DNA of 53,099 nucleotides from a virus. Taxonomy: Duplodnaviria; Caudoviricetes. The notes beneath the pieces are model-generated. The model saw only the letters and a list, made by a program, of their open reading frames with translations. It searched no databases and had not been told where the DNA came from. Below are positions 5,334 through 45,724 of the stretch, piece by piece. How positions within the stretch are numbered: position 1 is the stretch's first letter; each line of letters starts with the position of its first letter. The stretch covers positions 1-53,099 of the IMG/VR virus record IMGVR_UViG_3300005613_000084; one strand, given 5' to 3'. Position numbers and translations under genes: made by a program.

Positions 5334-5660
5334 GCGCGGGTGTAATCACACCCAAACCTGTTCCCTATAGTCCCTATTGTCCCCAATTTGTCATATCAAA
5401 TAAGAGTTGATATTGACATAACCTATTGCGGGGTAATGGGATGCGATCCGTCGCTATTTTCTCGCTTTATGCCTCACGAGCATGCGCCACTGCCTTCTTG
5501 GCGTCACCCTAAGATGCTGGCTAGTAGCGACTTGCGAGTTGGTCGTCTTATCTGACGGAAATCCAATAACACCCGCTTTACACCCGGGAGCTTTCTGGGT
5601 ATGCTGAATTAGTACAATTTGCTTTGGAAAATGCTATACTTCCTCTGGAGGGTGGTTGAC
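5334..5660. other. Probable attP-containing intergenic region
   Basis: Non-coding gap between the lysis terminator and the integrase; holds two 25-bp imperfect palindromes (5419-5443, 5510-5534). Core site not identified. Confidence 0.4.
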
Positions 5661-7654: not shown

Positions 7655-7909
7655 ATGTTCGGCACGGCAATCATGCGACTTTTGACCTTCAAGGAAGCTG
7701 CCAGGCAACTCTCCGTCTCGGTGCGCACCATCCAACGTCTCATTGAGCGAGGCGATTTGGTATGTGTAAACGTCTCTCCGTCCGGCGCTACTAAACGACC
7801 GCGACGACGTATCCGCGAGGAAGACCTGACAGCCTTCATTCTCGTCCGCCAAGAGGAGCCCCGCCAGGATCGCCTTGCACGCCGGCGGAGGCGAAGGGCG
7901 TTTACATGA
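7655..7909 (+). CDS. xis: Excisionase-like HTH_17 DNA-binding protein
   Basis: LLTFKEAARQLSVSVRTIQRLIERGDL...RRRIREEDLTAFI. Confidence 0.85.
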   Translation: MFGTAIMRLLTFKEAARQLSVSVRTIQRLIERGDLVCVNVSPSGATKRPRRRIREEDLTAFILVRQEEPRQDRLARRRRRRAFT

Positions 7910-8043
7910 CAGAGGAAGAGATGGCCGATTGGAACCAGCGACTAGAAGACGGCTGGAGAATGCTAGCCGACGACTACGGGACAGAAGACACCGACGGATT
8001 AACGATCTGGAACCCGAAAGAACCTATCACAGACGAGGAATAG
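7906..8043 (+). CDS. Small acidic protein (45 aa, 15 D/E)
   Basis: ATGA-coupled to the xis stop and fills the gap before the ATPase: MTEEEMADWNQRLEDGWRMLADDYGTEDTDGLTIWNPKEPITDEE. Below the ORF-track cutoff. Confidence 0.55.
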   Translation: MTEEEMADWNQRLEDGWRMLADDYGTEDTDGLTIWNPKEPITDEE

Positions 8044-8045
8044 TT

Positions 8046-8831
8046 GTGGCCTACGATCTGAGTCAGATTTCATCCGGCAAGTGTGTCCGTGCACCGCGCA
8101 TCATTCTGTTGGGCGTCGAGAAGATCGGTAAGAGTACCTTTGCGGCCGGCGCGAATCAGCCGGTATTCCTCCCCATTAAAGGCGAGGAAGGAATTGACGA
8201 CCTGGACGTAAATAGGGTGCCGGTCTGTCAAACAGTTGCAGATGTTTTTGGTTGGCTGAAATTCCTGCACGAGGGCCAGCATGAATTTCAGTCGGTCGTA
8301 ATCGACTCAGTGAGTACGCTCGCGCTGATGATGCACGCGGAAATCTGCGCGAGAGGTAACGTCAAGTCAATTAACGACGTTGGCGGCGGGTATGGAAAAG
8401 GCACCGATGAAGCCGTTGGAATCTGGCAGGACATTACTGTCTGGCTGGATGCGATCCGGCGAGACCGCAATATGGCTTCAATCCTGGTTGGCCACGTCAA
8501 AATTAAGCGGTTCGACGATCCTGGCGGCGATTCCTACGACCAGTACCAAATGGATGTGCATGAGAAAGTCAGTAATCTTCTCTTCCGCTGGGCCGACTCG
8601 ATTCTGTTCTGCAATAACAAGGTCGTTGTCAAGGAAGAACAACTCGGCTTCCATAAAGATAACGTGAAGAAGCGCGGAATCGAAATCCAGGCCGGAAGCA
8701 GATGGCTCTACACACAAAAACGTCCCGCGCATCCAGGCGGAGGACGGGGTGTCTATGGCCGCCTTCCATACGAACTGCCGTTGTCTTGGGAGGCATTCAC
8801 GGCGGCCGTGTCTGCTGCAATGCAGCAATGA
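8046..8831 (+). CDS. AAA_24 family ATPase (Sak4-like single-strand annealing recombinase)
   Basis: Walker A GVEKIGKS, Walker B VVIDS, GYGKG motif; GAGGA RBS before GTG 8046. Confidence 0.85.
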   Translation: MAYDLSQISSGKCVRAPRIILLGVEKIGKSTFAAGANQPVFLPIKGEEGIDDLDVNRVPVCQTVADVFGWLKFLHEGQHEFQSVVIDSVSTLALMMHAEICARGNVKSINDVGGGYGKGTDEAVGIWQDITVWLDAIRRDRNMASILVGHVKIKRFDDPGGDSYDQYQMDVHEKVSNLLFRWADSILFCNNKVVVKEEQLGFHKDNVKKRGIEIQAGSRWLYTQKRPAHPGGGRGVYGRLPYELPLSWEAFTAAVSAAMQQ

Positions 8832-8873: not shown

Positions 8874-9284
8874 ATGTCGGAAATGAAAACTTGCAACCGA
8901 TGTGGCCAGAGGAAACCACTGACCGCATTCCCAATGTACTCCGGCTACCGAAAAGACGGCAGTCGGAAACGGCGAGGATATTGTAGAGAATGCTTTAACG
9001 CACAGAAACGTTGGCGGTACAAAATGGAAATGCACACGCACCTCTCTGAATGCGAGCGCTGCCCGACGTGTGGCGGTAAAGTCCACCCTGTACAACTGTC
9101 TGAAACTTTAATTGTGCCGTGCCTTCTGTGTTTTACGCTCGGCCTGCGCGATCCCCTGGAGAACTCTAATGCAACTACCCCAGCCGATGCCTGCTCCTCA
9201 GCCGATGCCTGCCGTAAATCAGCCGATGCCTATTTCTCAGCCGATACCCATGGTGCCTGCGATGGCGACGGATCAGTACGGTGA
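8874..9284 (+). CDS. Zinc-finger protein (KxCxxCG..KP...F...CxxC)
   Basis: CNRC, CREC, CPTC and CLLC pairs; 3' end overlaps the next gene by 116 nt. Confidence 0.6.
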   Translation: MSEMKTCNRCGQRKPLTAFPMYSGYRKDGSRKRRGYCRECFNAQKRWRYKMEMHTHLSECERCPTCGGKVHPVQLSETLIVPCLLCFTLGLRDPLENSNATTPADACSSADACRKSADAYFSADTHGACDGDGSVR

Positions 9285-9846
9285 CTTACAGCAAGTTCTG
9301 GGTCAGCCGATCGACCCGAACACGATTGAGCCGCAAGATGATTTTGACGCTCTGCCGCCTGGTGAGTACCCCGCACTGATTGAGTCTGCTGAGATTAAGC
9401 AGACCAAGGCAGGAGACGGCTACTATATCAAAATCATCATGCAGGTCTTGGACGGCCAGTATAAGGGCCAGAAGATTTTCGATAACATCAACATCCGGAA
9501 TCCGAATCCAAAGTGTATGCGGATCGGTATGCAGGCCCTCGGGGCGCTCGGTCGCGCAGTTGGGGCTCAGCGGCTTTCCGACATGTCACAGCTTATCAAC
9601 CAGGTTGTGGTCGTGAAGTTGCGCGTCAAGAAAGACAAGACCTATGGCGAGCAAAATATCGTCCAGAAGTACCTGCCCCCTGGTGAGGCGCAGCCTCAGG
9701 TTGGTGATGCTGGACTGCCGAGACCTGCTGTAACTCCTGGGTCGCCTGCCGCTGTACCCGCGGCCACCGCCCCACAGGCCGTTGGTCCCGCTCCGGCACC
9801 GACACAACCGGCAGCAGGGCAGTCGAGGCCGTGGGACTCTCGATAG
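9169..9846 (+). CDS. DUF669-family single-stranded DNA-binding protein
   Basis: GGAGA RBS; FDALPPGEYPALIESAEIKQTKAGDG...LDGQYKGQKIFDNIN; Pro/Ala tail ending RPWDSR; next to the AAA_24 gene as is typical. Confidence 0.85.
   Translation: MQLPQPMPAPQPMPAVNQPMPISQPIPMVPAMATDQYGDLQQVLGQPIDPNTIEPQDDFDALPPGEYPALIESAEIKQTKAGDGYYIKIIMQVLDGQYKGQKIFDNINIRNPNPKCMRIGMQALGALGRAVGAQRLSDMSQLINQVVVVKLRVKKDKTYGEQNIVQKYLPPGEAQPQVGDAGLPRPAVTPGSPAAVPAATAPQAVGPAPAPTQPAAGQSRPWDSR
9181..9258 (+). repeat. Tandem CAGCCGATGCCT-type repeats encoding QPMP
   Basis: Four copies of cagccgat(g/a)cc at 18-21 nt spacing. Confidence 0.8.
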
Positions 9847-10753: not shown

Positions 10754-10919
10754 AGCCGACAGAATCATGTCCGCCTTTCCTGGCGTTACTCCAGGGACGC
10801 CACACGCTGCCGGTGGAATGTCGGCCAGGGAACTCTGTAAGGCCAATATTATCGGCCTTTATGCTCCCGAGGCGCAAGCTGCCGAATTGACGTTCCGACT
10901 AGGAGATCGAAATGAGTGA
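10719..10919 (+). CDS. Hypothetical protein
   Basis: GGGAG RBS before ATG 10719. Confidence 0.55.
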   Translation: MKVWLSNIRLVEADRIMSAFPGVTPGTPHAAGGMSARELCKANIIGLYAPEAQAAELTFRLGDRNE

Positions 10920-11331
10920 TACAGTAGTTACGAAAGAGTTTCGCAAGAGTGGCAACGGAGAGTTTTACTCGATAGTAAGGAAGGATACAACGGGCTTACG
11001 TTCTCAACTAGAGACCATAATACAACTCGGCTGGCTGCCTCGGGACATTGAAATCCCCGAAACCGCCAAGAGTCTGTGGTTTGAATTCTCGCGCAAAAAG
11101 AGGGCCGGTTCAATTCCAGTTGAGCTTCGCGCCTACGATATGACGCTTGAGGTGGAGAATCCTCTTGCACCCCCAGAGTGGAAGGATGGGAGGGGATGGA
11201 AACCACAATATACTTCATTGTACTCATCTGAGATCGTAGGTGGCCTCGCAAAGGCGCTGAAAATCCTGGGTCTAAAGTGTCTCTTGACAGGGAACAGTAA
11301 GCGCTTTATGCGAGTTCTCTACACCGAATAG
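10912..11331 (+). CDS. Hypothetical protein, paralog of 14459..14809
   Basis: AGGAG RBS; shares EIP(E/D)TAK(S/T)LWFE...SIPVE with 14459..14809. Confidence 0.7.
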   Translation: MSDTVVTKEFRKSGNGEFYSIVRKDTTGLRSQLETIIQLGWLPRDIEIPETAKSLWFEFSRKKRAGSIPVELRAYDMTLEVENPLAPPEWKDGRGWKPQYTSLYSSEIVGGLAKALKILGLKCLLTGNSKRFMRVLYTE

Positions 11332-12756: not shown

Positions 12757-14370
12757 GTGGAGCCTCGCCCCTACCAGAACGAATGCCTCGCGGCGCTGGA
12801 CAATCACATCTGCACGGCTGAGACGAACCCGTGTGTTGTGATGCCGACTGGCTCCGGTAAGTCCCCATGTATCGCGTGGATCATCCAGAAATGGAAAACG
12901 GAGTCACCGTGGTTCCGTTGCGTGATTCTCGCGCATCGGAAAGAGCTAATCGAGCAGAACGCCAAGGCGCTGGAGGCGATTGCCCCCGAGCTTAATGTGG
13001 GTATTTTCTCGGCAGCACTAAAACGTCGAGATTGGGAGGCTTCCGTTCTTTATGCCTCTATTGATTCCATCTTTTGGCGGGCAGGCGATTTTACGCCCTG
13101 GGACGTAATCATGGTCGACGAAGCCCACAGAATACCATTGAAAGGCGAGGGGAAGTACCGGCGATTCATTCAGGAGAGCCGGCAATGGAACGATAGGCTC
13201 CGCGTTGTCGGTTGGACTGCAACGCCCTTTCGTCTTGACGGCGGGCGGATTTGCCATCGCGATCATATCCTGAATGAAGTGTGCTATGAAGCCAAGGTGA
13301 CGGACCTCATTAAACAAGGCTTCCTCTGTAATTTGCGGTCCAAGGTAGGGGAGGCACAGCCGGACTTATCGAGCGCCAAGAAAGCCTGCGGAGACTACAC
13401 GATCAAGAGTCTCGCGGAGATTACGAATCGCGATCAGATCGTTACCGAGGCCGTGACGGAAGCTGTACGGCTCATCGGAGCCGAGAACCGTAAGGCCGTG
13501 ATTTTCTTCTGTGTCGATGTCGCGCATTGCGAGCGGGTGAGCGCTGAGCTTCAAAAACACAGAATCTACGCGCCTGTTGTGACTGCTAAAACGAAACAAC
13601 GCGATCGCGACAGAATCGTCAGAGATTTTAAGGCCCGGAAAATCAACGCCCTGTGTAATGTCAATGTTTATACAGAAGGATTCGATGCGCGGCACGTCGA
13701 CTGCATTGTGCTCCTGCGCCCGACTCTCTCGGCGGGGCTTTACTCACAGATGGTAGGTCGCGGGCTGCGAATTCACGACGACAAGACGGATTGTCTTGTG
13801 CTGGACTTCGGAGGCTGTATTGAGCAACACGGCCCGATAGATCTCCTGGACGGCGAGCCCGTGGTGATGGCAACATGCGGCAACTGCCGTGAGTCGTTCT
13901 CTCGTGCCGCGCGAGTCTGCCCGCAGTGCGGTTGGGAAATTCCGAAACAAGAGATCGAACGTCTAGAGGGCGAGGAACGGGAACGGCGCTTACACGGCAA
14001 GCAGGCATCGGGTGAGTCTATCATCTCGACACAGCCAAAGACGCGCAAGGTCGACGCTGTATTCGTTAATCGGCATGTCAAAGCTGGCTCTCCTGATTCG
14101 ATCCGCGTGCAGTACCGCTGCGAACTGTCGATGTACCGCGAATGGATTTGCCTGGACCATGATGGGTACGCTGGCAAGAAGGCGCAACAGTGGTGGATAC
14201 AGCGCTTCGGGCGACCGAAGAACGGAATAATTACCGTCAACGAAGCCCTCGAAAACCTCTTCCTTTCGCAGGAAATCCTGGAGTGGACAAAGACTATCAC
14301 CGTTCGGTACGGCAAAAGGTATTGGGAGATCGTTGCATACAATAAACCTCTGGAAATGGAGGCTGCATAA
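12757..14370 (+). CDS. Superfamily 2 DEAH helicase (RadD/YejH-like) with C-terminal zinc ribbon
   Basis: PRPYQ, PTGSGKS, DEAH, TATP, TEGFD, QMVGRGLR, CGNC...CPQC. Confidence 0.95.
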   Translation: MEPRPYQNECLAALDNHICTAETNPCVVMPTGSGKSPCIAWIIQKWKTESPWFRCVILAHRKELIEQNAKALEAIAPELNVGIFSAALKRRDWEASVLYASIDSIFWRAGDFTPWDVIMVDEAHRIPLKGEGKYRRFIQESRQWNDRLRVVGWTATPFRLDGGRICHRDHILNEVCYEAKVTDLIKQGFLCNLRSKVGEAQPDLSSAKKACGDYTIKSLAEITNRDQIVTEAVTEAVRLIGAENRKAVIFFCVDVAHCERVSAELQKHRIYAPVVTAKTKQRDRDRIVRDFKARKINALCNVNVYTEGFDARHVDCIVLLRPTLSAGLYSQMVGRGLRIHDDKTDCLVLDFGGCIEQHGPIDLLDGEPVVMATCGNCRESFSRAARVCPQCGWEIPKQEIERLEGEERERRLHGKQASGESIISTQPKTRKVDAVFVNRHVKAGSPDSIRVQYRCELSMYREWICLDHDGYAGKKAQQWWIQRFGRPKNGIITVNEALENLFLSQEILEWTKTITVRYGKRYWEIVAYNKPLEMEAA

Positions 14371-14458: not shown

Positions 14459-14809
14459 ATGAAAGTTATGTCCAAAGCGTTCCATAGAGATGGAAAAGTT
14501 TTCTACTTGCCGGACGCGAACCACTTCGATCCAGAGCCAATGAACATTGATTGGCTCAAAGACTTGGAAATCCCAGACACCGCCAAGACGCTGTGGTTTG
14601 AGTTGCTTGACAAGCCGACCGATAACTCAATCCCCGTGGAAGCAAGCTCTTGCGGTCTATGCATTGACCTCTCAACTGACGAAGATCAATCGTCCCTCTA
14701 TCATAATGAGTTAATTGGCAGGGGCGGCAAGAGGCTGGATAGTTTCATTGGGAAAAGTGCGTTTGGCCACAGAAACATGCACTTGCAGGTTCATTATCGT
14801 GAAGAATGA
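14459..14809 (+). CDS. Hypothetical protein, paralog of 10912..11331
   Basis: GAGGAG RBS; shared IPDTAKTLWFEL...SIPVE and SLY motifs. Confidence 0.7.
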   Translation: MKVMSKAFHRDGKVFYLPDANHFDPEPMNIDWLKDLEIPDTAKTLWFELLDKPTDNSIPVEASSCGLCIDLSTDEDQSSLYHNELIGRGGKRLDSFIGKSAFGHRNMHLQVHYREE

Positions 14810-14996: not shown

Positions 14997-15167
14997 ATGT
15001 CGATTGAAAATCCAAAAACGCACGCGGAATTTATTGCGCGGTGGCGCAGGATACTCGGGTGCGAGAGTTGTAAGGCCCCAGAGGCACCAATGGTATGCTG
15101 GTGTCGTGTATGCGTTCAACTGGAGAGTATGCGGAGAGAAATGCGTGCAATCATGGGTAAGCAATGA
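14997..15167 (+). CDS. Small Cys-containing protein (56 aa)
   Basis: AGGGGA RBS; CESC and CWCRVC; ATGA-coupled to the primase gene. Confidence 0.5.
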   Translation: MSIENPKTHAEFIARWRRILGCESCKAPEAPMVCWCRVCVQLESMRREMRAIMGKQ

Positions 15168-17416
15168 ACCACTTCCTTGAAGCAGCCTTACGATATGCCG
15201 AGTTTGGTTGGCACGTCTTCCCGTGTGTGCCGAACCAAAAGGTACCCATCACAAAGCACGGCGTCAAAGACGCCACGCGAGATGCCGACCAGATTCAAGC
15301 ATGGTGGACACAGTGGCCGGCTGCGAATGTGGCTGTTGCGTGTGGCGCGGAAAGCGGCGTCTATGTGATAGATGTGGATGTGACCGCGGCCGGGAACGTG
15401 AACGGCTATGAGTCACTGAAGGAGTTTCCGGAACTCCCGGATACTGTTATCCAGAAGACGCCACGAGGTGGCTTCCACGCTTTCTATCGCACAGACAACC
15501 CGCCGGCCAACAAGAACGGCTTCCGGCCGGGGATCGACCTTCGGGGCGATGGGTACTACGTCGTGATTGCGCCGAGTATCCATCCGAATGGTGGACAGTA
15601 CGTCTGGGCTCCGGGTTGCGCTCCGGGCGAGATCGCGATCGCCAAGTACCCGGACTTCATACGCCCGCCGGCCCGTCAGCCGTCCACTAAGCCGGCCGCA
15701 CCGCTCCCGCTCCCCGTCCCAACAGGCGACAGCGCTGCGAGGATGCGCGTTGCCGAGGCGTACATCCCAACGTGCGACATAGCCGTCCAAGGGCAGGCTG
15801 GGCACAACAAGCTGTTTTGGGCGGCGCAATGTGCGGTCAACGGGATCGGGCTCTCGGATTCCGAAGCCTACGACGTTCTCACACGGCTCTTCAACCCCTT
15901 CTGTCAGCCCCCTTGGGACCTGAGTATCCCGAAAGACGAAAAGGATTTCCGCCGGAAGATCAGCGAGGCCCAGAGGAACCCGCCGGGTGACTTGCCGCAT
16001 CTCTGGGTACTCAACAATCCTGACTACGAACATCTCCGCGAGGATGCGCCCCAAGAGGCGTATGACTGGGCTGAGGCGATGCTGGCTAATCACCTGGCCG
16101 GGCAGCAGGCCGTCGAGCAGCCTCTCGTAATCACGGCTCCTGAATTCAGGCTCGACAACCCGCCTGGACTGATCGGCGAGATATGTGAATGGATCGACGC
16201 TACGTCGCTCATCAAACAACCGCTTCTCACATTGGCCTGCGCGCTGACGTTTGGTGGGGCTTTATTTGGACGAAAGATCAAGGATACACTCGGCACGCGA
16301 ACTAACCTGTACTGCATGGGGGTTGCGAATTCCTCAAGCGGCAAGAACCATGCACCTTCTCAAATTCGCAATCTCTGCACGCACTCCGGCTGCCTCGATT
16401 TACTCGGCGGGGAGTCTACTGCGTCCGACTCTGCAATCGAGGAGCGCGTTGCTTGTTCGCCTTCCACACTTTTCCTGTGGGACGAGATTGGGTTTATGCT
16501 TAAGGATATCAAGCGGGGACTTTCTCCACATCGGGCGGCTATTGTGTCGCTACTGATGCGACTCTACTCACTGTCTGGTTCAGTCTACACTGGTCGAGAG
16601 TATGCAGAAAGCGATAAGCGACGGAAGATCATCCAGCCTTGTTGCTGCCTGTATGGAAGTTCTACGCCGATCCGCTTTGCGGAGGGTATTTCTGTTGGTG
16701 AGTTAGAGGATGGCTGGCTCGCCAGATGCCTTTGCTTCAGAGCTTCCGATGATATACCGCGCAAGGTTCGCAGCACTTCAGACCAGCCGCCACCGCCGGG
16801 GCTCTGCGAGAAGGTGGCGCAATGGTTCGCGCGGCAGCCGCAGGCCACAGACGGGCATACTATCGGCGAGTTCGCAAGGTTCGATCCTATCCTTGCGTCG
16901 GCAACGGACCTACCGCCTACGCAGATCGTAGTGCCACGGACTGGCGCGGCGGAGCGGCTGTTTATTATGCTGGACGACGAAGCGCACAGCCCTGAAATTC
17001 AGGAAAGCAGGATGGGGGCACTCTGGCGCAAAGCGGAAGAAAACGCGCGGAAGGTAGCGCTGATTATCGCGGCCGGCGCGAACTACGATGCGCCAGAAAT
17101 CACAGAAGCCGTTGCGGAGTATGCCTGCCAGCTTATAAGGCACCTACTGTTGCAATTCACTGAACGCACAGCGCCCGAGATTGTTGATAATCAAATTGAA
17201 TTTGACAAACAAAAAATCTTCAGGATTATCGCAAGGCACGGCACTAGAGGGTGCGTACATCGCACAATCACAAAACAGACACAGCGCATGAATCGAAAGG
17301 GCAGGGATGCCCTGATTGCGGACATGATCGAAGCTGAGCGTATCTTGCGTGAACCAGAAGGTCGAACATTCCGATATTGGTCAGCGGAGCATTCTCCATG
17401 GACGCAGAAACCGTAA
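15164..17416 (+). CDS. Bifunctional primase-polymerase (Prim-Pol) fused to a DUF3987-like helicase domain
   Basis: GWHVFPC, VIDVD, TPRGGFH, GYYVVIAPS; C-terminal P-loop ANSSSGKN and WDEIG. Confidence 0.9.
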   Translation: MNHFLEAALRYAEFGWHVFPCVPNQKVPITKHGVKDATRDADQIQAWWTQWPAANVAVACGAESGVYVIDVDVTAAGNVNGYESLKEFPELPDTVIQKTPRGGFHAFYRTDNPPANKNGFRPGIDLRGDGYYVVIAPSIHPNGGQYVWAPGCAPGEIAIAKYPDFIRPPARQPSTKPAAPLPLPVPTGDSAARMRVAEAYIPTCDIAVQGQAGHNKLFWAAQCAVNGIGLSDSEAYDVLTRLFNPFCQPPWDLSIPKDEKDFRRKISEAQRNPPGDLPHLWVLNNPDYEHLREDAPQEAYDWAEAMLANHLAGQQAVEQPLVITAPEFRLDNPPGLIGEICEWIDATSLIKQPLLTLACALTFGGALFGRKIKDTLGTRTNLYCMGVANSSSGKNHAPSQIRNLCTHSGCLDLLGGESTASDSAIEERVACSPSTLFLWDEIGFMLKDIKRGLSPHRAAIVSLLMRLYSLSGSVYTGREYAESDKRRKIIQPCCCLYGSSTPIRFAEGISVGELEDGWLARCLCFRASDDIPRKVRSTSDQPPPPGLCEKVAQWFARQPQATDGHTIGEFARFDPILASATDLPPTQIVVPRTGAAERLFIMLDDEAHSPEIQESRMGALWRKAEENARKVALIIAAGANYDAPEITEAVAEYACQLIRHLLLQFTERTAPEIVDNQIEFDKQKIFRIIARHGTRGCVHRTITKQTQRMNRKGRDALIADMIEAERILREPEGRTFRYWSAEHSPWTQKP

Positions 17417-21299: not shown

Positions 21300-22042
21300 T
21301 CGAAGGCGACTGTCTAAAAGTTCTGGCAACCCTCCCAAGAGCCACTTGCCTTTTCGCAGACCCGCCGGACAACATTGGTCTGAAATACGCAGAAGGAAAC
21401 GACAAGCTACCTGACCGTAAGTACCTAGCTCAATTCGAGCGCTGGCTATATCAGTTCATTCGCTTAGCAGATATCGTATGGGTGAGCTATAATGCGAAAT
21501 GGTTCATACAAGTCGGTGCGATACTTGACCAAATGTTGAACCTTTTCCGCTGGCTCAAGGCTCGGCAATGCGTTCAGACCTTCACCTTTGGACAACACCA
21601 ACAAACGACGCTCAGCAACAACTACCGCCCCTTGCTTTTACTGCATCGCGAAGACGCGCAATTTTACCCCGACCAAATTCGCATTCAATCCCAGAGACAA
21701 AAGAATGGCGACAAGCGAGCCGACCCGAGAGGCCGAGTGCCCGGTGATGTGTTCGATTTCCCCCGAGTGGTGGGCAACTCTAAGCAGCGCCGATCTTGGT
21801 GCCCTACACAGCTTAACGAGGGCCTTATCGAGAGATGCATTCGGTTCTCTACGGCCGATTCCAAAACAGACACCGTTATTGATCCTTTCGCTGGAACAGG
21901 GACCACTTTACGTGTATGCCAGAGAAGAAATCGTGAATGCATCCTGATAGAGAAGAGCAGCGCCTATTGTTCAGAGATCGCAAAAGAACACGCCCTAGAG
22001 ATCGAAAGACCCCTAGGACGTGCAGGGAATGCAGTAGTATGA
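21284..22042 (+). CDS. N6-adenine/N4-cytosine DNA methyltransferase (beta class), variant DPPD motif
   Basis: IEGDCL, FADPPD (usually DPPY), VIDPFAGTGTT, ILIEK. Confidence 0.85.
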   Translation: MQHRLIEGDCLKVLATLPRATCLFADPPDNIGLKYAEGNDKLPDRKYLAQFERWLYQFIRLADIVWVSYNAKWFIQVGAILDQMLNLFRWLKARQCVQTFTFGQHQQTTLSNNYRPLLLLHREDAQFYPDQIRIQSQRQKNGDKRADPRGRVPGDVFDFPRVVGNSKQRRSWCPTQLNEGLIERCIRFSTADSKTDTVIDPFAGTGTTLRVCQRRNRECILIEKSSAYCSEIAKEHALEIERPLGRAGNAVV

Positions 22043-22104
22043 TGGTGCGCGTTGGGCAGTTCTTGATCTGTCCTAACGCTGATTGGGCTGGGCGGTGTGG
22101 GAAA

Positions 22105-22695
22105 CTATTCCCCCTCCGGTTCCTCTAGGTCCGGCGGATTCAACGTGGTGCCACACGGACACACCGGCAGGCCAACCTCCAACCACTTCTGCGTTGTGCG
22201 CACCGTATATCCACAGTCTGCACACTCCAATTTCTTCATGCGAGTTGTCTGTGTCTTCGGCGCGTTGCTGTAGTCTAGCTGGGCGTGCGGATACTTGCCG
22301 ATCCCTTTCGTGATTCCCTTGAGCGTGGCTTTCAGTTCGTCACTTGCTGTTGTGTCAGTCATTCTGCCCTTTAACCCCACTGCCCTGGCCAGCGCGCCGA
22401 AGCGTTTACCATGCTTCTGGTCGATCCCGACCGCGCAGTGAACCAACTCGTGAACAAGCACAGCCGCTACTTCGATTGGATCATCAAGCAGGGGGGAGAT
22501 GAAGACCTCAAAGCTCCCATCCGCACTTTGCTTACTGCACCACGCCTCCCCGATTCGTTTGCGATGCTTCGCTAAGGCTGACTTAGACGGCCAGGAGCAC
22601 GAGGCCCGGACCTTCCTGGGGACCGGCTGTCCAGCTTCACGGAATACCGGGCGAAGGGCACTAATACACTCTGATAGCCATTTCTCTCGGTTCAT
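22105..22695 (-). CDS. SprT-like zinc metalloprotease
   Basis: LVHELVH...HGKRF and C-terminal CADC...CPC zinc ribbon. Confidence 0.85.
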   Translation of the reverse strand: MNREKWLSECISALRPVFREAGQPVPRKVRASCSWPSKSALAKHRKRIGEAWCSKQSADGSFEVFISPLLDDPIEVAAVLVHELVHCAVGIDQKHGKRFGALARAVGLKGRMTDTTASDELKATLKGITKGIGKYPHAQLDYSNAPKTQTTRMKKLECADCGYTVRTTQKWLEVGLPVCPCGTTLNPPDLEEPEGE

Positions 22696-23123
22696 CGCTT
22701 GCCTTTCTCTGTTACTTCACGTTTCCTCTTAACCCAGCGCCGGCCACACACTGACGCTAGACACCGTTCGTTTCGCTGCGCGATACTCCTAAATAGCGGG
22801 TGATTGATTGTATCTAGCAAATACAACTCGTGCAGTTCAATCGCGATAGCGAGCAACTTCTTGCTTTCGCGCTGGGCCCGAAGCTCATACAGCAACGGCC
22901 CGCGGGTGTGAGTCGGCAGTTGGGTGTTACCACACACTGGACAGCGCTTCTCAAGCCTTCTCCGCCGCGCTTCGGCTCGCCCCTCCGCTTGCTTGGCGTT
23001 GAAACAGCGTTTACACACCGCCGCTATTCGCCGTGCACCTCCAGGCCGCGCCGGGCCCTTGAATGCAAAACACTCAATCGGCCTGGCCTCAAAACAGTTA
23101 GAGCAGATTTTGCGCTCAACCAT
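22692..23123 (-). CDS. Zinc-finger protein
   Basis: CSNC, CKRC, CPVC; N-terminus resembles 8874..9284. Confidence 0.65.
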   Translation of the reverse strand: MVERKICSNCFEARPIECFAFKGPARPGGARRIAAVCKRCFNAKQAEGRAEARRRRLEKRCPVCGNTQLPTHTRGPLLYELRAQRESKKLLAIAIELHELYLLDTINHPLFRSIAQRNERCLASVCGRRWVKRKREVTEKGKR

Positions 23124-23337
23124 TGGCTAACTCCCCGAAGGTTCTCAGCACGATTTCCCTGCGCTCTGGCGGACCATCGGCCAGGTAGAGCAAGATGCCG
23201 GCCAGTAGGTGGGCCGTCATTGGGGTGAAGTCGATCGCCTCCAGCCGCTTTTTGTAGCGGTTGTAGCGCTGTGCCGCGGGATTACCGCGGGGACGCTTAG
23301 CTTTGCGACTCGGGAGTGGGTTGGTTGGGATTTTCAT
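23116..23337 (-). CDS. Hypothetical basic protein
   Basis: Overlaps neighbours at both ends within the operon. Confidence 0.6.
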   Translation of the reverse strand: MKIPTNPLPSRKAKRPRGNPAAQRYNRYKKRLEAIDFTPMTAHLLAGILLYLADGPPERREIVLRTFGELANG

Positions 23338-23504
23338 ACAATCACCCCCCCTACCTGAAGGCGAAACGGCTCGCCTTCATGCGGGCCGCTCGTGATTACC
23401 CCACACATGAATAGTCTCCCATCTTCCTCGATAACGTCCATAATTTGCAGGGCGTAATCACCCGGGGGCATACTGTCGATGGTGTGTACTACAGGTTTAG
23501 TCAT
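23334..23504 (-). CDS. 56-aa protein resembling the N-terminal half of DUF669 SSB
   Basis: Starts at a linker repeat; MTKPVVHTIDSMPPGDYALQIMDVIEEDGRLFMCGVITSGPHEGEPFRLQVGGVIV; ATGA overlap with the next gene. Not in the ORF track. Confidence 0.7.
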   Translation of the reverse strand: MTKPVVHTIDSMPPGDYALQIMDVIEEDGRLFMCGVITSGPHEGEPFRLQVGGVIV

Positions 23505-23713
23505 TGCTTGCCTTTCTCTGGTGCTTCAAGTTTCGCTAATACCCTCCGACAGCGGCTACACGTTGGTCTGCGCAGTCGTGTTTCACGTGGATTCAGAATG
23601 AAAGTTCCGCAGAGTGTGTCCAGCAGGTTTCCGTCTGCGCTCCTGTCTTGGTCGAGGGCGCAGCACCAGTCCTTTTTGCCCACTTTACGGGCGCACCACA
23701 CTTTATTACTCAT
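23501..23713 (-). CDS. Small Cys-rich protein (70 aa)
   Basis: Starts at a linker repeat (MSNKVWC...); TLCG...PTCSRC; ends in linker-encoded EAPEKGKQ. Confidence 0.7.
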   Translation of the reverse strand: MSNKVWCARKVGKKDWCCALDQDRSADGNLLDTLCGTFILNPRETRLRRPTCSRCRRVLAKLEAPEKGKQ

Positions 23714-24044
23714 TGCTTGTCTTTCTCTGGTGCTTATACTGTCTGATTCTGGCACAATTACCCGATGATTTACAATAGGTACCGTGGTAGCGCAGACCGT
23801 TGATTGCGTGAACGTCAATCGGCACGCGCACTCCGCCAAAGTTATCCCGGTACTCGCGACCGAAACATACGCTCCCTAGCCGCTCTCCAGTCCAGGTAGT
23901 TGCCCTTTGGTTCTCTTTGTCGATATAGAGAGAGTATCGGTCTGGTTTGTCGCGCAGAAACTCGTACACTTCTACGGCGCTGATTTCATCATTCGACTGG
24001 CGATCAATTCGTGCGCGAATTGCCTTATACTCGGTCTCAGTCAT
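23706..24044 (-). CDS. Hypothetical phage protein
   Basis: Starts at a linker repeat; TTWTGERLG motif. Confidence 0.75.
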   Translation of the reverse strand: MTETEYKAIRARIDRQSNDEISAVEVYEFLRDKPDRYSLYIDKENQRATTWTGERLGSVCFGREYRDNFGGVRVPIDVHAINGLRYHGTYCKSSGNCARIRQYKHQRKTSNE

Positions 24045-24226
24045 TGCTTGCCTTTCTCTGGTGCTTCACAGGTGACGAACCCGGCGCGGTCCTCATATTT
24101 CAGGGTGCGCTCCATTCCGCGCCGGTCACTCTCTGCTTCAGCCTGAGTGTGATACGGCCCGCAAGGCTCGACACCCTGTAAGCCGACCACCCACCAGCCG
24201 TCCGCACGTTGTTCGGCCCTGGACAT
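24041..24226 (-). CDS. Hypothetical phage protein
   Basis: GWW...GPYHTQAEAE; ends in linker-encoded EAPEKGKQ. Confidence 0.7.
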   Translation of the reverse strand: MSRAEQRADGWWVVGLQGVEPCGPYHTQAEAESDRRGMERTLKYEDRAGFVTCEAPEKGKQ

Positions 24227-24477
24227 TAGACTGCTGCCTTTGCTTTTTCCTTCTGGCCACTAATCGAGCCATCATACAGAATCCGATTCGTGCCAAAGCC
24301 GCCCCATCGAATTAAAGCGACTTCAACGCAATCCACGCCGTCCTGGTCGACGTAGGCTGTACAGCGAACCGCGCCCGACCACGAGGCGCACTGCGTCACC
24401 ATGCCGGAGTTTTTTGACCCCAGTCGGGTTGCTCGTGTCCTTGCCTTGCCCGTTGCGGTACCATAAAAACGTGCCAT
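24226..24477 (-). CDS. Hypothetical phage protein
   Basis: GGAGA RBS; MARFYGT...ATRLG; TAATG coupling. Confidence 0.7.
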   Translation of the reverse strand: MARFYGTATGKARTRATRLGSKNSGMVTQCASWSGAVRCTAYVDQDGVDCVEVALIRWGGFGTNRILYDGSISGQKEKAKAAV

Positions 24478-24507
24478 CGGTGCATTCTCCAGGGTGTGAA
24501 ACAGAAA

Positions 24508-24915
24508 TCAGCCAATGTGCAGCCGGCCATCATCGCCAACCACAACCCAACACTCGCCGAACGCCTTGCAGGCTTCCGTAAGCTTGTCGCCCACTTCACC
24601 CAACTCCCGATCCCAGAAACCGGCCCCATGGCTATGTCGCGTCAACCAGAAATCATGCCCAGCCATTTCGTCGTCTGAGAATTCGTCATTGTTGTAGTGT
24701 GCCTTTTGCAGAAGCGCTGCATTCTCGGCTTGGAACTTCCGGCAATCCGTGATTGCCCTCTTAATCGCTTCTGGCGTGAAGTCGTCAAGCCCGTAGTTGC
24801 TGTCAAGCGGTACTCCGCCTGATTCGTCTGCGTTGTCGGTCTCTGCCCATAACGCACACTCCAGGTACGCAATTGTGAATGCGCCGAGGTCAGTGGGTGT
24901 AAGGGTGTCGTTCAT
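24508..24915 (-). CDS. Hypothetical acidic phage protein
   Basis: AYLECALW...AGHDFWLTRHSHGAGFWDR; starts at a partial linker. Confidence 0.75.
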   Translation of the reverse strand: MNDTLTPTDLGAFTIAYLECALWAETDNADESGGVPLDSNYGLDDFTPEAIKRAITDCRKFQAENAALLQKAHYNNDEFSDDEMAGHDFWLTRHSHGAGFWDRELGEVGDKLTEACKAFGECWVVVGDDGRLHIG

Positions 24916-25082
24916 TGTTGCTTGCCTTCTGTCTTATTGTCGTGGGTTCGCAGTCCACGGCCTACCATCTGTGAGTAGAGCCCAGCACACGCACGGCAAT
25001 AATAGGTGCGCTCGCCCGACTTCCGGTTGACTACAGTGTGCCGCACGCGCGGTCGACCACAATTCACACAAACCTTTGCCAT
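24912..25082 (-). CDS. 56-aa zinc-ribbon protein fused to a helicase motif VI peptide
   Basis: MAKVCVNCGRPRVRHTVVNRKSGERTYYCRACAGLYSQMVGRGLRTHDNKTEGKQQ; linker repeat at the start and ATGA overlap at the end. Not in the ORF track. Confidence 0.75.
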   Translation of the reverse strand: MAKVCVNCGRPRVRHTVVNRKSGERTYYCRACAGLYSQMVGRGLRTHDNKTEGKQQ

Positions 25083-25183
25083 CGTTACTTGCCTTTCTCT
25101 GGTGCTTAACGGAAACGAGTAAAATCGAGCCCCCGCCCGGGAGGCGAACCCCGGTTACGCAATTGCGGGTGAGGGGGGGCTAG

Positions 25184-25459
25184 TCAGAATGCAGTTGTGC
25201 CCCAACTGCGCAGCCGGAACGGGATACGCTTAGCTGTGGCCTTGATATGACTGTGCCTGCTGTTATCAATGCCACATTTTGCCTGCGCGATTGCCTCATT
25301 GTGGTCTGCGGCAAGGACGAACACGCGCGATTTCACGCCCTCATATCGCAAGGTGACGCGCCACAAGTGCATCTCGCGTCCCTCGCGAGTAAGGGCGTAG
25401 GTGTAATCGTCGCGCTCTGTGACATGTAGCGTGGCTTCCGGTGTGGTCAAGGTCTTCAT
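25184..25459 (-). CDS. Hypothetical protein
   Basis: GGAGA RBS before ATG 25459 (MKTLTTPE...). Confidence 0.65.
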   Translation of the reverse strand: MKTLTTPEATLHVTERDDYTYALTREGREMHLWRVTLRYEGVKSRVFVLAADHNEAIAQAKCGIDNSRHSHIKATAKRIPFRLRSWGTTAF

Positions 25460-25461
25460 AG

Positions 25462-25596
25462 TCAGTTCTCCAATCCACAAGGGCGGTAGTCCGGGCGCTG
25501 CATGGCGCGCCAGATGATGCGCTTCATGCGTGCTTGTTCTCGTGCTTGGCTGTCCATGGTGAGCACCTTACGTAGCCGACGGAGTAGCTTGCTCAT
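25462..25596 (-). CDS. Small basic protein (44 aa)
   Basis: GAGGGGA RBS; MSKLLRRLRKVLTMDSQARE...; fills the operon gap. Confidence 0.5.
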   Translation of the reverse strand: MSKLLRRLRKVLTMDSQAREQARMKRIIWRAMQRPDYRPCGLEN

Positions 25597-25608
25597 TGCG
25601 ATCCCCTC

Positions 25609-30975: not shown

Positions 30976-32789
30976 AAGTCTCCACCTCTTTTGCACATCA
31001 TGTTCCGACTGACATAAGGGAGAACCTTCGGTGGAAGGCCAAAATCCATCGAAGAGTCATGGACGACCCTGCGTATGCAGAAGTGATTTGGGACGCCTGT
31101 AAGCAGGACCCGATTTTCTATGTGAATGGGTTTGTGTACACTTACGACCCGCGCCGAGAGCCGTTTCCTAAGGTGCCGATGATCCTGTTTCCGTTCCAGG
31201 TGGACGGCCTGTCACAGATCATCCGTGCGCTCAATGCGCACGATATTTTTGTTGAGAAATCGCGAGACATGGGGGCCTCGTGGCTCTGTATCCTTGCGCT
31301 TGAATGGGCATGGCACTTCCATGACGACCTGGCGTTTCTGATGGGGTCTCGGGTCGAGGACTACGTAGACAAGACGGACAACCCGAAGGCGCTCTTTTGG
31401 AAGATCGACTTCCTCCATCGCCATCTACCGAAATGGTTAATGCCCCCTGGCTACACCAGCGCGTATCGCAGTAAGCTGCATATTTTCAACCCGTACACCG
31501 GGTCGGTGATTGATGGCGAATCGACCACAGAGAACTTCGCTCGTGGCGCCCGGTTGACGGCAATCCTGCTGGATGAGTTTGCAGCGGTCGATCAGGGGCA
31601 CCAAATCTTGGGCGCGACCCGCGATGCCACGAACTGCCGGATATTCAACTCGACTCCCGCCGGGATCGCCAATGCCTATTATGACGTACGGCAGACCGGA
31701 ATCCGGAAGCTCCGTTTCCATTGGTCGGAACATCCGCTGAAGAATCCCGGGCTCTACACTACGGCCAAAGATGGCACCTTGAAGGTGCTCGACAAGGAAG
31801 GTTATCCCGACCGTTATCGCCCAACACTGGACGGCAAGCTCCGCTCGCCCTGGTATGACATACAATTCGATCGGGCCGCGTCACCCCGCGAGATTGCGGA
31901 ACAACTGGATATCGACTACCTCGGCTCCGGTTATCAGTATTTCTCGGCAGAGGCCATTCAGAGGGCAATTCGTCGATTCGCTTGCGATCCGATCCTCGTG
32001 GGTGACCTGGAATATGATTCCGTCACTGCGGAGCCGATTCGCTTCAGGGAGCATCAGGAGGGCCGGCTGAAGCTCTGGTGCCTGCTGAATAGGGATGGCA
32101 GCCTGACGATCGATCACCCGGTGGTTATCGGTGGGGACGTGTCGGCCGGTACGGGTAGCAGTAACTCCTGTTTGTGTGCCTATGATGCCACAACAAATGA
32201 GAAGCTTGCCGAGTATGCCAATCCGTATATCCGCCCCGAGGAATTCGCCAGGCAGGCCGTGGCGCTGGCGCAATGGCTGAACAAGGCATATCTGATATGG
32301 GAGAACAACGGCGTTGGTCGGCAGTTTGGTTCTCGTGTGGTTGAGCTTGGCTATGGCAATATCCATTACCGCCGGCGTGAAGAGGCGATCAGCAAGAAAG
32401 TATCGGACGTGCCGGGTTGGGCCAGCACGATCGAGACGAAGCTTGTTCTAATGGGGAGCTATCGCGCCGGGGTTGAGAATTCCAAGATCGTCAACCGGTC
32501 GAAGATCGCGCTGGAGGAGACGTTGGAGTATATCTTTGACGCCAAGGGCGGTGTAGCGCACTCGCGAGAAAACAGCAAAACCGATCCGACCGGCGCAAAG
32601 AAGAATCACGGTGACCGGGTAATGGCCGATGCGTTGGCCCAGCATGGCCTCACGGCGCGCCGCACGGCTCCACCGAAATTAGAGAAGCAGAAGGCACCAT
32701 ACGGCTCTCTTGCGTGGCGCATGGAGCAACGGAGACAGGCAGAACAATCTCCAGGGAGGGAGCTATTACATTCGGAAGGCTGGGGGTAA
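30972..32789 (+). CDS. terL: Terminase large subunit
   Basis: LFPFQ adenine-binding motif, KSRDMGASW Walker A variant, ILLDE Walker B, NSTP, nuclease GGDVSAG, WENNG, HGDRVMADAL. Confidence 0.93.
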   Translation: MKVSTSFAHHVPTDIRENLRWKAKIHRRVMDDPAYAEVIWDACKQDPIFYVNGFVYTYDPRREPFPKVPMILFPFQVDGLSQIIRALNAHDIFVEKSRDMGASWLCILALEWAWHFHDDLAFLMGSRVEDYVDKTDNPKALFWKIDFLHRHLPKWLMPPGYTSAYRSKLHIFNPYTGSVIDGESTTENFARGARLTAILLDEFAAVDQGHQILGATRDATNCRIFNSTPAGIANAYYDVRQTGIRKLRFHWSEHPLKNPGLYTTAKDGTLKVLDKEGYPDRYRPTLDGKLRSPWYDIQFDRAASPREIAEQLDIDYLGSGYQYFSAEAIQRAIRRFACDPILVGDLEYDSVTAEPIRFREHQEGRLKLWCLLNRDGSLTIDHPVVIGGDVSAGTGSSNSCLCAYDATTNEKLAEYANPYIRPEEFARQAVALAQWLNKAYLIWENNGVGRQFGSRVVELGYGNIHYRRREEAISKKVSDVPGWASTIETKLVLMGSYRAGVENSKIVNRSKIALEETLEYIFDAKGGVAHSRENSKTDPTGAKKNHGDRVMADALAQHGLTARRTAPPKLEKQKAPYGSLAWRMEQRRQAEQSPGRELLHSEGWG

Positions 32790-43392: not shown

Positions 43393-45724
43393 AAAGAGAC
43401 GCCTCAGAGTACCGTTCCCACTGGCTGGCTTGAATCGTCGGGCCGCCTTTCGGCAACAGCCGCCGTACACGTCGCCAGACATGAGTAACGTCTGGCCGAT
43501 CGGTACATTCGAGGAGCGTATGCGCGGCGGTAGCCGGCCAGGGTTAATCACATCGCACATTACGGACCTCGGAACGAACGTGCGGATGCTGTATAACATG
43601 ACTCTCGCGCTGGGCGACGACTTCACGGCGTGGTCTGATAATTTCGCTGGCTCCTCACTGGCGGCTGCCTGGGCCCAGGCGTCGTGGGCATCAGATACGC
43701 CGGACATCCTGCCATCTGCGATGGCCTCTATCGACTATTCGACCAGCGAAGGTGAGGTAGTTCGTGATGCCCTGTCGATCGACACGACGCAGGCATACAC
43801 GGTCGAGATGTTCATCGTGCCGTGGAGCGCTGAGTTTCACGGGCAATACAGGCTCTACCTCCGCCTGGACGACACGACACCGGCTTATGCGACGGATGGA
43901 GTGCAAGTTGAACTGACTATGACAGGCTCGGATGGCTCGTGGTCGGGAACATTGAAGTCGTACACGGGTTCGGTGGCCACAACGACTGACTCGGATACCG
44001 GCACCATCACCACGCCGGCCCCGGGTTGGCTCTCGGCTGTCGTGAGCGGTAATGACGTGGACGTGTATTGGCACGGCACAAAAATCCTCTCAGGAACCGT
44101 GGATGCCCATACTGGCGCTCGTGTCGGATTCGGAATGGAGTGTACGGAGAGTGGCGGTATCTGTCTGGTTAACACGTTCAGGGTCCAGTATTTCTCGACC
44201 AGCACGATCAGCGGCTCACGCACGATGCTTGTAGCCTCGGCGGGCGGTAACCTGTATTACGAGGACACCTACGGCACTATGACGCAGGTTGTTACGGACT
44301 TGACACTGCGGAGCGATGTGGGCTTGCAATGCGTCCAGAGCGGGCAGAAGTTATACATCGCAGACTACGGGCTGCGGGTGACGGGCACTGACGGGACGGT
44401 CTCGGGGAGCGATCTGGACGCGGCTGGTGTGGCTGATTGGACGGCTCACTCCATCGACCCGCACGACGACGTGGTTGTAATCTCAAATGTAGGTGGAGAC
44501 ACTACGGCCGGTACGTACACGATTGATTCAGTTGCGGCCGGGGCACTGACGCTCACGGCAGCACCAGGCGACGGAACCTGCACGTATCGAGTGGAGCGTG
44601 CGCCGAAGGTGTACGACCCAAGTGCAGGTACACTGTCAATCCTCACAGCCGAAGGCGCACCAACTCTGCAAGTGCCGACCGGCTGTCCACTGATTGCACG
44701 GTTTTTAGATCGGATTGTCCTCGGTGGCGCAGACACAGCACCGCACGTCTGGTATATGGCTCGTCAAAGTGACGAAGATGATTGGGATTATTCGCAGACC
44801 GACAGCCAACGGGCTGTGGCCGGCACCGCTTCTGAGGCCGGGACGCCTGGCGACCCGCTGACCTCACTTATCGCGCATAGTGACGACTACCTAATTCTGG
44901 GTTGTCGTACTGAGGTTTGGATGATGCGCGGCGATCCGGTCTACGCGCCGGACCTGGATTCGGTCAGCCACACGGTCGGGATTATTGGCCCGGAGGCTCG
45001 GTGTATCGGCCCGGCCGGCGAGTTGATCTTCCTGACTTTAGACGGCTTGTATGCCCTTCCACCCGGTGGCAATTCGGAGCCGATCCCGCTGTCGCGCGAA
45101 GTGCTGCCGGAAGAGTTTGCGAACCTGCACCCCGAGACAACCACTGTACTCCTAGAATTTGATACGGAGAACCATGGTGTCCATATCTTCCTGTCGCCGG
45201 ATTCATCGAATGCTAGGACGCACTGGTGGTTTGATTGGACGAATAAAACGTTTTGGCCCATCACGCTTTCATCTAACCACGAACCTCTGGCGGCCTGCGC
45301 GGTCCAAGGCACGAATGTCGAAGATTCGGCGGTTGTATTGGGTTGTCGAGACGGCTATCTTCGACGGTTCTCTGGGCTTGCGGAAAATGACTGCGGGACG
45401 GCGTATGCGACATACGTTGAGATCGGCCCGATACCATTGGCGGCAGATGGCAAATTCGGGACGATTCTATCCCTGGACGGGGTGCTTGCCGCCGATAGTG
45501 CTGACGCAACGTGGTCGATCCATCCGGCGCAGACTTTCGAGGAGTCGACCACGGCCGCGTCAGTAGCCTCAGGGACGTGGAGCGGTGGCCTGAACGCTTC
45601 AGTACACCGGCTGGGCCGCGGGCAGGCCGCGATTCTGAAGATCACAGGGACCTCAGGCCGGGCTTGGGCGTACGAGCAGTCCACGATGGACGTGGTTGAC
45701 TCTGGCCGGCGGAGGATCGCCTGA
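43385..45724 (+). CDS. Tail nozzle / tail tubular B-like (P22 gp10-like) protein
   Basis: PFPLAGLN N-terminus, RGGSRPG, beta-rich 779 aa; podoviral synteny. Confidence 0.7.
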   Translation: MAKKRRLRVPFPLAGLNRRAAFRQQPPYTSPDMSNVWPIGTFEERMRGGSRPGLITSHITDLGTNVRMLYNMTLALGDDFTAWSDNFAGSSLAAAWAQASWASDTPDILPSAMASIDYSTSEGEVVRDALSIDTTQAYTVEMFIVPWSAEFHGQYRLYLRLDDTTPAYATDGVQVELTMTGSDGSWSGTLKSYTGSVATTTDSDTGTITTPAPGWLSAVVSGNDVDVYWHGTKILSGTVDAHTGARVGFGMECTESGGICLVNTFRVQYFSTSTISGSRTMLVASAGGNLYYEDTYGTMTQVVTDLTLRSDVGLQCVQSGQKLYIADYGLRVTGTDGTVSGSDLDAAGVADWTAHSIDPHDDVVVISNVGGDTTAGTYTIDSVAAGALTLTAAPGDGTCTYRVERAPKVYDPSAGTLSILTAEGAPTLQVPTGCPLIARFLDRIVLGGADTAPHVWYMARQSDEDDWDYSQTDSQRAVAGTASEAGTPGDPLTSLIAHSDDYLILGCRTEVWMMRGDPVYAPDLDSVSHTVGIIGPEARCIGPAGELIFLTLDGLYALPPGGNSEPIPLSREVLPEEFANLHPETTTVLLEFDTENHGVHIFLSPDSSNARTHWWFDWTNKTFWPITLSSNHEPLAACAVQGTNVEDSAVVLGCRDGYLRRFSGLAENDCGTAYATYVEIGPIPLAADGKFGTILSLDGVLAADSADATWSIHPAQTFEESTTAASVASGTWSGGLNASVHRLGRGQAAILKITGTSGRAWAYEQSTMDVVDSGRRRIA

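Follow-up and report, generated by a model that had tools for sequence, protein, structure and literature searches.

How did a phage gene coding for no more than 56 residues come to carry, near its end, a copy of motif VI of an SF2 DNA helicase resembling the one encoded by the same genome, and is the copied peptide of any use to the phage? This question is raised by a locus on the minus strand of the window, i.e., the whole stretch of 53,099 nucleotides analysed here, which had previously been read from the sequence alone as a mini-gene carrying a captured helicase fragment.

Results

A small zinc-ribbon gene in a minus-strand operon

The window has a GC content of 55% and carries an exact terminal direct repeat of 123 nt (bases 1-123 are identical to 52977-53099). 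Judged by its sequence, it is a complete phage-like genome, either a closed circle or one with direct terminal repeats. A block of small genes lies on the minus strand, approximately 11 kb downstream of the replication module, and the features relevant for the locus are the following:

7875-8831, plus strand: AAA_24 protein of the replication module
12757-14370, plus strand: SF2 DNA helicase of 537 aa (phrog_16) with ResIII and Helicase_C domains, part of the replication module
15164-17416, plus strand: PrimPol protein of the replication module
26089-26061, minus strand: promoter-like site at the head of the operon (sequence scan)
25126-25145, minus strand: GC hairpin of weak terminator character, with a T run, in the interval separating the 98-aa ORF from the mini-gene, a region that aligns with the related contig L082
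24912-25082, minus strand: mini-gene of 56 aa (from the ORF list) with a zinc ribbon, a helicase-derived tail and a linker-encoded end (EGKQQ and the stop)
24508-24915, minus strand: gene of 135 aa (phrog_1915, function unknown), directly downstream of the mini-gene and ATGA-coupled to it
22023-21988, minus strand: strong terminator-like hairpin at the end of the operon (sequence scan)

The fold of the hairpin at 25126-25145 is no better than that of shuffled sequences (z 0.47).

The mini-gene product has the sequence MAKVCVNCGRPRVRHTVVNRKSGERTYYCRACAGLYSQMVGRGLRTHDNKTEGKQQ. As had been claimed for this CxxC..CxxC reading frame of 56 aa, it overlaps the gene at 24508-24915, the TGA stop of the one and the ATG of the other forming the coupling element ATGA, and the proposed linker ribosome-binding site was likewise recovered as a copy of a repeated motif just before the start codon. 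This 19-nt junction motif, CAGAGAAAGGCAAGCAATG, occurs five times in the window, always on the minus strand and between 22693 and 25101, at an expectation of 0.02 by chance. It stands at gene junctions of the operon, where it combines a Shine-Dalgarno-like GAAAGG with the ATGA overlap and at the same time contributes the final codons of the genes lying upstream of it (...EAPEKGKQ and the stop), several of which are thus alike at their C-terminus. Degenerate versions are found at the same junctions in the related genome G002 as well as before the mini-gene ortholog in L082. Both ends of the mini-gene are framed by this element:

25083-25101, minus strand: linker/RBS copy upstream of the mini-gene start, with two mismatches to the 19-mer
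24912-24931, minus strand: degenerate RBS/coupling linker CAGAAGGCAAGCAACAATGA (junction comparison), supplying the last codons and the stop of the mini-gene together with the RBS and the ATG of the next gene

A search with the 135-aa neighbour led to the related viral contig L082, the helicase of which is 69% identical to that of the window, and comparison with this contig delimits the older part of the mini-gene:

L082:4864-4995: mini-gene ortholog of 43 aa, MAKTCDKCGGPRVRYTVVNQKTGYRTRYCRACARQYKASMKGK, syntenic and directly upstream of the 135-aa ortholog
24984-25082, minus strand: ancestral zinc-ribbon part according to the ortholog comparison, codons 1-33, CxxC-x20-CxxC

The L082 ortholog is 64% identical to the window protein, with all four cysteines in common, and is directly followed by an ortholog of the 135-aa gene (72% identity). 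The upstream GC hairpin and the RBS linker align between both sequences as well, the linker copy of L082 (4845-4863) occupying the same place before the mini-gene ortholog. Comparison of the window with L082 shows no change at C5, C8, C29 or C32, and the two conserved CxxC knuckles that characterise a zinc ribbon are accordingly present in both proteins. Over the ribbon codons 2-33, pS amounts to 0.70 and pN to 0.18, giving a dN/dS of 0.10 (NG86), a value which argues for a ribbon that is translated and under constraint. On this comparison, 24912-25082 is a genuine small zinc-ribbon gene.

Profile searches do not assign the protein to a described family: no curated zinc-ribbon family matched above its cut-off, the best Pfam match being PF17283 with 18.1 bits at a cut-off of 28.1, and no PHROG family matched the mini-protein. 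Helicase_C, ResIII and DEAD gave no match in the 56-aa protein at E up to 0.1, and of the features that define an SF2 helicase (two RecA-like domains with motifs I-VI) it contains the motif VI residues alone. The exact sequence is present in the ESM Atlas, where the nearest clusters are unnamed small hypothetical proteins (scores 0.93-0.94, 136-150 shared features). In an AF2 model built from the two-sequence alignment (mean pLDDT 72.7), strands at residues 13-18 and 25-29 form a hairpin, followed by a helix at 30-40 and a short strand at 45-48. The modelled helix begins at the second knuckle and extends into the helicase-derived residues, which suggests that the inserted residues, continuing the helix from the second CxxC, would be tolerated; as the tail of the ortholog fills the same place, the insertion may be structurally conservative. 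Foldseek of this model against the PDB returned nothing at E <=0.001 and generic small zinc-binding folds at E >=0.4. A complex prediction of helicase residues 1-365 (18-row alignment) with the mini-protein gave no verdict (score 0.00 in both runs, controls not folded).

An in-frame copy of helicase motif VI at a cassette boundary

The tail of the mini-protein is encoded by one of the two arms of an inverted repeat, I1:

24928-24986, minus strand: 59-nt in-frame copy of SF2 motif VI (AGLYSQMVGRGLRTHDNKT)
13732-13790, plus strand: helicase segment encoding motif VI, to which the copy is closer than to any other sampled helicase (repeat search and alignment)

The helicase ORF of 537 aa includes AGLYSQMVGRGLRIHDDKTD and carries a CxxC..CxxC ribbon of its own after motif VI. 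With 59 nt and 83% complementarity, I1 is the longest of 93 inverted pairs in the window. When the window was scanned with the 59-mer, the agreement of 49/59 positions reported from the first reading was reproduced at 13732, against 33/59 at the second-best site and a maximum of 34 for 200 shuffled 59-mers. A captured segment should have an identifiable source sequence, and helicase motif VI provides it. Nine of the ten mismatches are transitions, eight fall on third codon positions, and the longest exact run is 17 nt. Taken codon by codon, six mismatches are the sole change in their codon and synonymous, and the tail peptide is identical to the helicase at 17 of 20 residues, both as first described; the remaining four mismatches lie in two residue-changing codons (ACC/ATT and AAT/GAC). 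In total, the 20 shared codons display 8 synonymous and 3 non-synonymous differences (pS 0.54, pN 0.066). Within the 13 residues AGLYSQMVGRGLR, all of which are identical between helicase and copy, there are five synonymous changes and no residue change, a pattern to be expected of differences gathered in a functioning helicase. A DGR template/variable pair was considered for I1 and rejected, the mismatches being ordinary transitions in nine of ten cases and not tied to adenine (A at 0/10 mismatch positions in the helicase copy and at 3/10 in the mini copy).

The mini-gene ends in 20 nt of degenerate linker sequence, and the helicase piece therefore lies exactly at a cassette boundary. In L082, the CRACA of the second knuckle leads directly into a linker-like tail, RQYKASMKGK and the stop, which resembles two degenerate linker copies. 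At the DNA level, this tail does not significantly resemble motif VI from the helicase of the window or from that of L082, codon-shuffled sequences matching the score in 1761, 732 and 960 of 2000 cases, and an older helicase capture in the L082 tail was rejected on these grounds. As expected for a mosaic joint, the segment is thus absent from the ortholog. Because L082 is without the segment and its tail without motif VI likeness, the helicase piece would have been added in the lineage of the window, and because the ortholog lacks it, the insertion can be placed after the last zinc knuckle and ahead of the conserved linker with the RBS for the following gene. The earlier claim of a capture is supported: the segment is helicase-derived and in frame, and the syntenic ortholog is without it. 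The ends of the insertion show short junction matches, GCGAGGC vs GCGGGGC (6/7) and ATAAGGCA vs ATAAGACA (7/8), with shuffled sequences often scoring as high.

Judged by the helicase, the closest relatives (84%) are G002 (100% complete) and G001 (82% complete), in both of which the operon genes p83, p61, p112, p143 and p196 have orthologs. The mini-gene, the 135-aa gene and the 98-aa gene are absent from both of them, and other small ORFs occupy this place in G002. Since these relatives keep the neighbouring genes without the mini-gene and p135, the stretch appears to be swapped between relatives. The operon features also a second conserved junction type, TTTCACACC(Y)TGGAGAATGCACCGATG, which is found before the 83-aa gene both in the window and in G002 and, in a similar form, before ArdA in L082 (window 24478-24505, minus strand; L090 about 570-615; L082 about 5380-5425). 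This ArdA anti-restriction protein (L082:5424-5951, PF07275, E 1.8e-41) is encoded directly after the 135-aa ortholog, and a different gene is found at the matching position of the window.

Distribution of the fusion and of the neighbouring gene family

A word search of 5.8 billion proteins with the mini-protein returned the protein itself only, twice, and phmmer against 1.84 billion representatives yielded 16 matches, namely the protein itself and 15 long proteins (342-1392 aa), each in 4-15 stretches. A profile scan with the two sequences recovered only the same L082 phage from viral and metagenome contigs and was empty for genome contigs; viral contigs gave 0 matches to the junction pattern CxxC-xx-LYSQMVGRGLR. 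Tblastn of the mini-protein against the loci gave 93 rows, 88 of which fall in open frames of at least 390 aa and represent helicases, while the other five comprise three rows for the L082 ortholog and two weak chance matches (E 0.14 and 0.51). In the collection of deposited phage genomes, all matching records (21/21) are matched in annotated helicase genes. Helicase matches reaching further into the mini-protein, i.e., to residues 11-50 (L042, L051) or, in deposited phages, to residues 11-52/53 (H28-H32, E 0.1-0.5), were rejected as additional cases, being composed of motif VI and a chance PRV..TV.V. The fusion is a singleton across all the collections searched, which covered proteins as well as viral, metagenome and genome contigs. 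The sequence-only reading had named a fusion confined to this genome, with neither purifying selection nor translation, as an outcome that would speak against it; half of this was found, no search having returned a second genome.

A captured-fragment pattern throughout the operon was also looked for and rejected: when 22000-25600 was compared with the remainder of the genome by tblastx, only the helicase piece and one true paralogy emerged. The latter links the N-terminal Cys-rich region of the 143-aa ORF (22989-23123, minus strand) to 8874-9008 (plus strand) at the start of ORF 8874-9284, with 33% identity over 45 aa (E 6e-7). In PHROG, weak matches of the 143-aa ORF are to families of the HNH endonuclease, endonuclease VII and Lar-like type. 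In order of length, I1 is followed in the genome by two inverted repeats that likewise touch 24752-25216, the 470 nt around the mini-gene. The 34-nt pair I2 (25183-25216 vs 9549-9582) is out of frame and the 29-nt pair I3 (24752-24780 vs 31941-31969) in frame (FTPEAIKRAI vs FSAEAIQRAI). As further captures, both were discarded, their lengths being expected by chance according to our own estimate, and their clustering is still odd. Homologs of the 135-aa protein show equivalent residues at the position of I3.

The family of the 135-aa protein is widespread: tblastn finds it in 471 phage records, the hosts of which include Mycobacterium (179), Escherichia (108), Gordonia (40), Rhodobacter (23) and Caulobacter (21), and it features a conserved HDFWLTRNGHGAGFWD motif. 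A zinc-ribbon gene as fixed partner of this family was considered and rejected, none being located upstream in 3/3 inspected records (of 471), and none was found upstream of the 135-aa homolog in L083. In a distant viral contig (L084:4356-5360), the 135-aa domain forms the C-terminal part of a 334-aa protein, the own CxxC...CxxC stretch of which has no BLASTP likeness to the mini-protein.

The donor of the helicase piece

For a comparison of possible donors, 51 viral loci bearing the motif were gathered via peptide patterns including SQMVGRGL. The best match to the 59 nt among their helicases is 47/59, compared with 49/59 for the helicase of the window. In terms of differences over the 59 nt, the copy is separated from the own helicase by 10, from L054 and L053 by 12 each and from L055 by 14, and the own helicase is separated from L054 by 8 and from L053 by 11; the whole-gene pS between the own helicase and its 84% relatives is 0.60-0.67. 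From these difference counts and the whole-gene pS, the copy would branch near the own helicase, at a depth typical of separate phages. Among the six close sequences compared, GTA as the V codon and the HD residues are confined to the copy and the own helicase; the T after GLR is found also in the helicase of L023, and the N before K also in the L001 and L055 helicases. No viral contig encodes MVGRGLRTHDNKT, and since in addition no sampled helicase is nearer than that of the window, a foreign donor is a hypothetical one. By our own arithmetic, a neutral copy would be expected to have gathered approximately 16 non-synonymous changes (dS about 0.95, split equally between both copies), whereas 3 are seen, and an own-helicase donor would therefore imply a tail under strong selection. 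The synonymous bias had been ascribed beforehand either to capture from the helicase of a related phage or to selection on the peptide, and both readings still fit.

Discussion

The explanation we favour, and consider probable, is an in-frame, one-off mosaic joint derived from the helicase of a diverged sister phage, in which the ribbon is the working part and the tail a passenger. The ancestral form would have consisted of the ribbon and a few residues, followed by the conserved linker that provides RBS and coupling for the downstream gene, as in L082. In the lineage of the window, approximately 57-59 nt of an SF2 helicase motif VI from this phage group would then have been inserted in frame, exactly between the last zinc knuckle and the linker, presumably as a mosaic joint or templated filler via illegitimate recombination or template switching at the gene boundary. 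The donor was probably a diverged helicase allele of an unsampled sister phage, in which the synonymous differences could have built up under helicase constraint, and the capture itself would be fairly recent; the fused cassette may have come whole from the sister phage. We favour such a donor because the clade is thinly sampled, the nearest helicase being only 84% identical, because cassettes are visibly exchanged between relatives at this place, and because the residue conservation of the tail tracks the helicase's own invariant positions.

A different history would be an old capture from the own helicase, with the motif VI peptide kept by selection for use, which we regard as unlikely, though deserving of attention. 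Such a tail might mimic a helicase surface as a decoy, or bind or modulate a helicase or ATPase. It would fit well with the own helicase being the nearest of all sampled (49/59 vs <=47/59 elsewhere) and sharing the GTA codon and the HD residues exclusively with the copy among the six compared, with a pS of 0.54 beside a pN of 0.066 and all 13 core residues intact, and with the position of the gene in an accessory operon, its cassette in L082 adjoining ArdA. However, no search found a second genome with the fusion, the sole ortholog manages without the tail, and 20 residues taken from the RecA2 core need not fold as they do in the helicase, as is generally known for SF2 enzymes; moreover, a foreign helicase donor predicts the same sequence pattern equally. 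The more specific idea of a domesticated motif VI peptide presented on the zinc-ribbon scaffold and acting in trans, as bait for a host immune sensor directed at this phage helicase family or as modulator of the helicase or a related ATPase, is in our view quite improbable, and the roles originally suggested for the mini-protein, i.e., decoy for a host sensor or inhibitor of rival helicases, are unsupported. A full-text literature search (phage, helicase, motif VI) gave nothing relevant on a helicase-motif peptide acting as decoy. Should the capture from the own helicase be old and the tail neutral ever since, the own helicase would be the nearest sampled sequence, as it is, but a pS of 0.54 predicts many residue changes and probably stops or frameshifts, and with 3/20 residues differing in an intact frame we give this version very little credit.

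The 59 nt could stem from helicase reads of a co-occurring phage that were wrongly spliced in during metagenome assembly, and in fact the window looks like an assembled viral contig, with bases 1-123 equal to 52977-53099. Both flanks, however, belong to one locus syntenic with L082, so that two graph jumps within 59 nt would be needed, the helicase piece is in frame, and the longest exact run in common with the own helicase measures 17 nt; an assembly chimera is therefore extremely unlikely. We think just as little of a role at the DNA or RNA level, with the 59-nt inverted homology as recombination or inversion site or as RNA pairing tag. Although I1 is the longest inverted repeat of the genome, it has 83% identity and no exact run above 17 nt, recombination between its arms would presumably invert about 11 kb including replication genes, and the third-position excess points to constraint on the protein rather than on the nucleotides. 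Furthermore, each copy lies on the sense strand of its own gene, so that the two mRNAs have the same sense and cannot pair. The homology tag that had been put forward as an alternative is consequently unlikely, given same-sense mRNAs, an identity low for recombination and codon-aware substitutions.

Relation to known systems

Phage mosaicism via illegitimate recombination at gene boundaries is the subject of the Hendrix/Hatfull model. The mosaic joint favoured here resembles this model in that the new joint lies exactly at a gene boundary beside a short conserved junction sequence, and in that neighbouring cassettes differ between close relatives. It differs in the captured piece, which is only 59 nt long and comes from the middle of an essential replication gene, and which is moreover inverted, 11 kb away and read in its original frame within another protein. 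Templated filler insertions are known from microhomology-mediated or template-switch repair joints. Here, the likeness consists in a short copy from the own or a co-infecting genome at a junction, with possible microhomologies of 6-8 nt at both ends, whereas the microhomologies in the present case are not significant. The event itself is not reconstructable because the copy is 17% diverged from the nearest template.

At the protein level, the tail matches motif VI of Helicase_C (PF00271) in 13 identical residues, including the Q, GR and R of QxxGRxxR, but the mini-protein presents motif VI alone and with 56 aa is too small for a RecA-like domain. Small zinc ribbons such as Zn_ribbon_SprT (PF17283) and Zn_Ribbon_TF (PF08271) share the CxxC-x20-CxxC arrangement and a predicted beta hairpin between the knuckles, although all Pfam matches of the mini-protein are below cut-offs. 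With anti-defence mimics, e.g., the DNA mimic ArdA, the mini-gene has in common its place in an accessory operon, and the cassette of the relative neighbours ArdA.

If the tail is a passenger, the locus represents a clean, well-bounded and datable mosaic joint, which shows phage small genes gaining coding sequence: a short stretch of an essential gene came to lie, in frame, beside the conserved RBS linker of a cassette boundary, and the ortholog represents the state before the event. If the tail were selected, the phage would be using the best-conserved peptide of its own helicase a second time, on another scaffold, which bears on phage-host sensing and on helicase regulation. Should the domesticated tail prove true, it would constitute a new way for phages to reuse a fragment of an essential enzyme.

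Further repeats in the genome

Two repeats elsewhere in the window were observed in addition. The small plus-strand genes 10912-11331 and 14459-14809 have a common stretch of 44 nt with 84% identity, which encodes the peptides DIEIPETAKSLWFE (10912-11331) and DLEIPDTAKTLWFE (14459-14809). Both genes flank the pair consisting of a 437-aa ORF and the helicase and are, by this likeness, probably diverged paralogs. Moreover, four copies of a 104-nt unit are located at 46418-46914, with a spacing of 129-135 nt and 63-74% identity to the reference copy. These units fall within the 1011-aa ORF 45724-48759, which suggests a repeated domain of approximately 43 aa in a likely tail protein.
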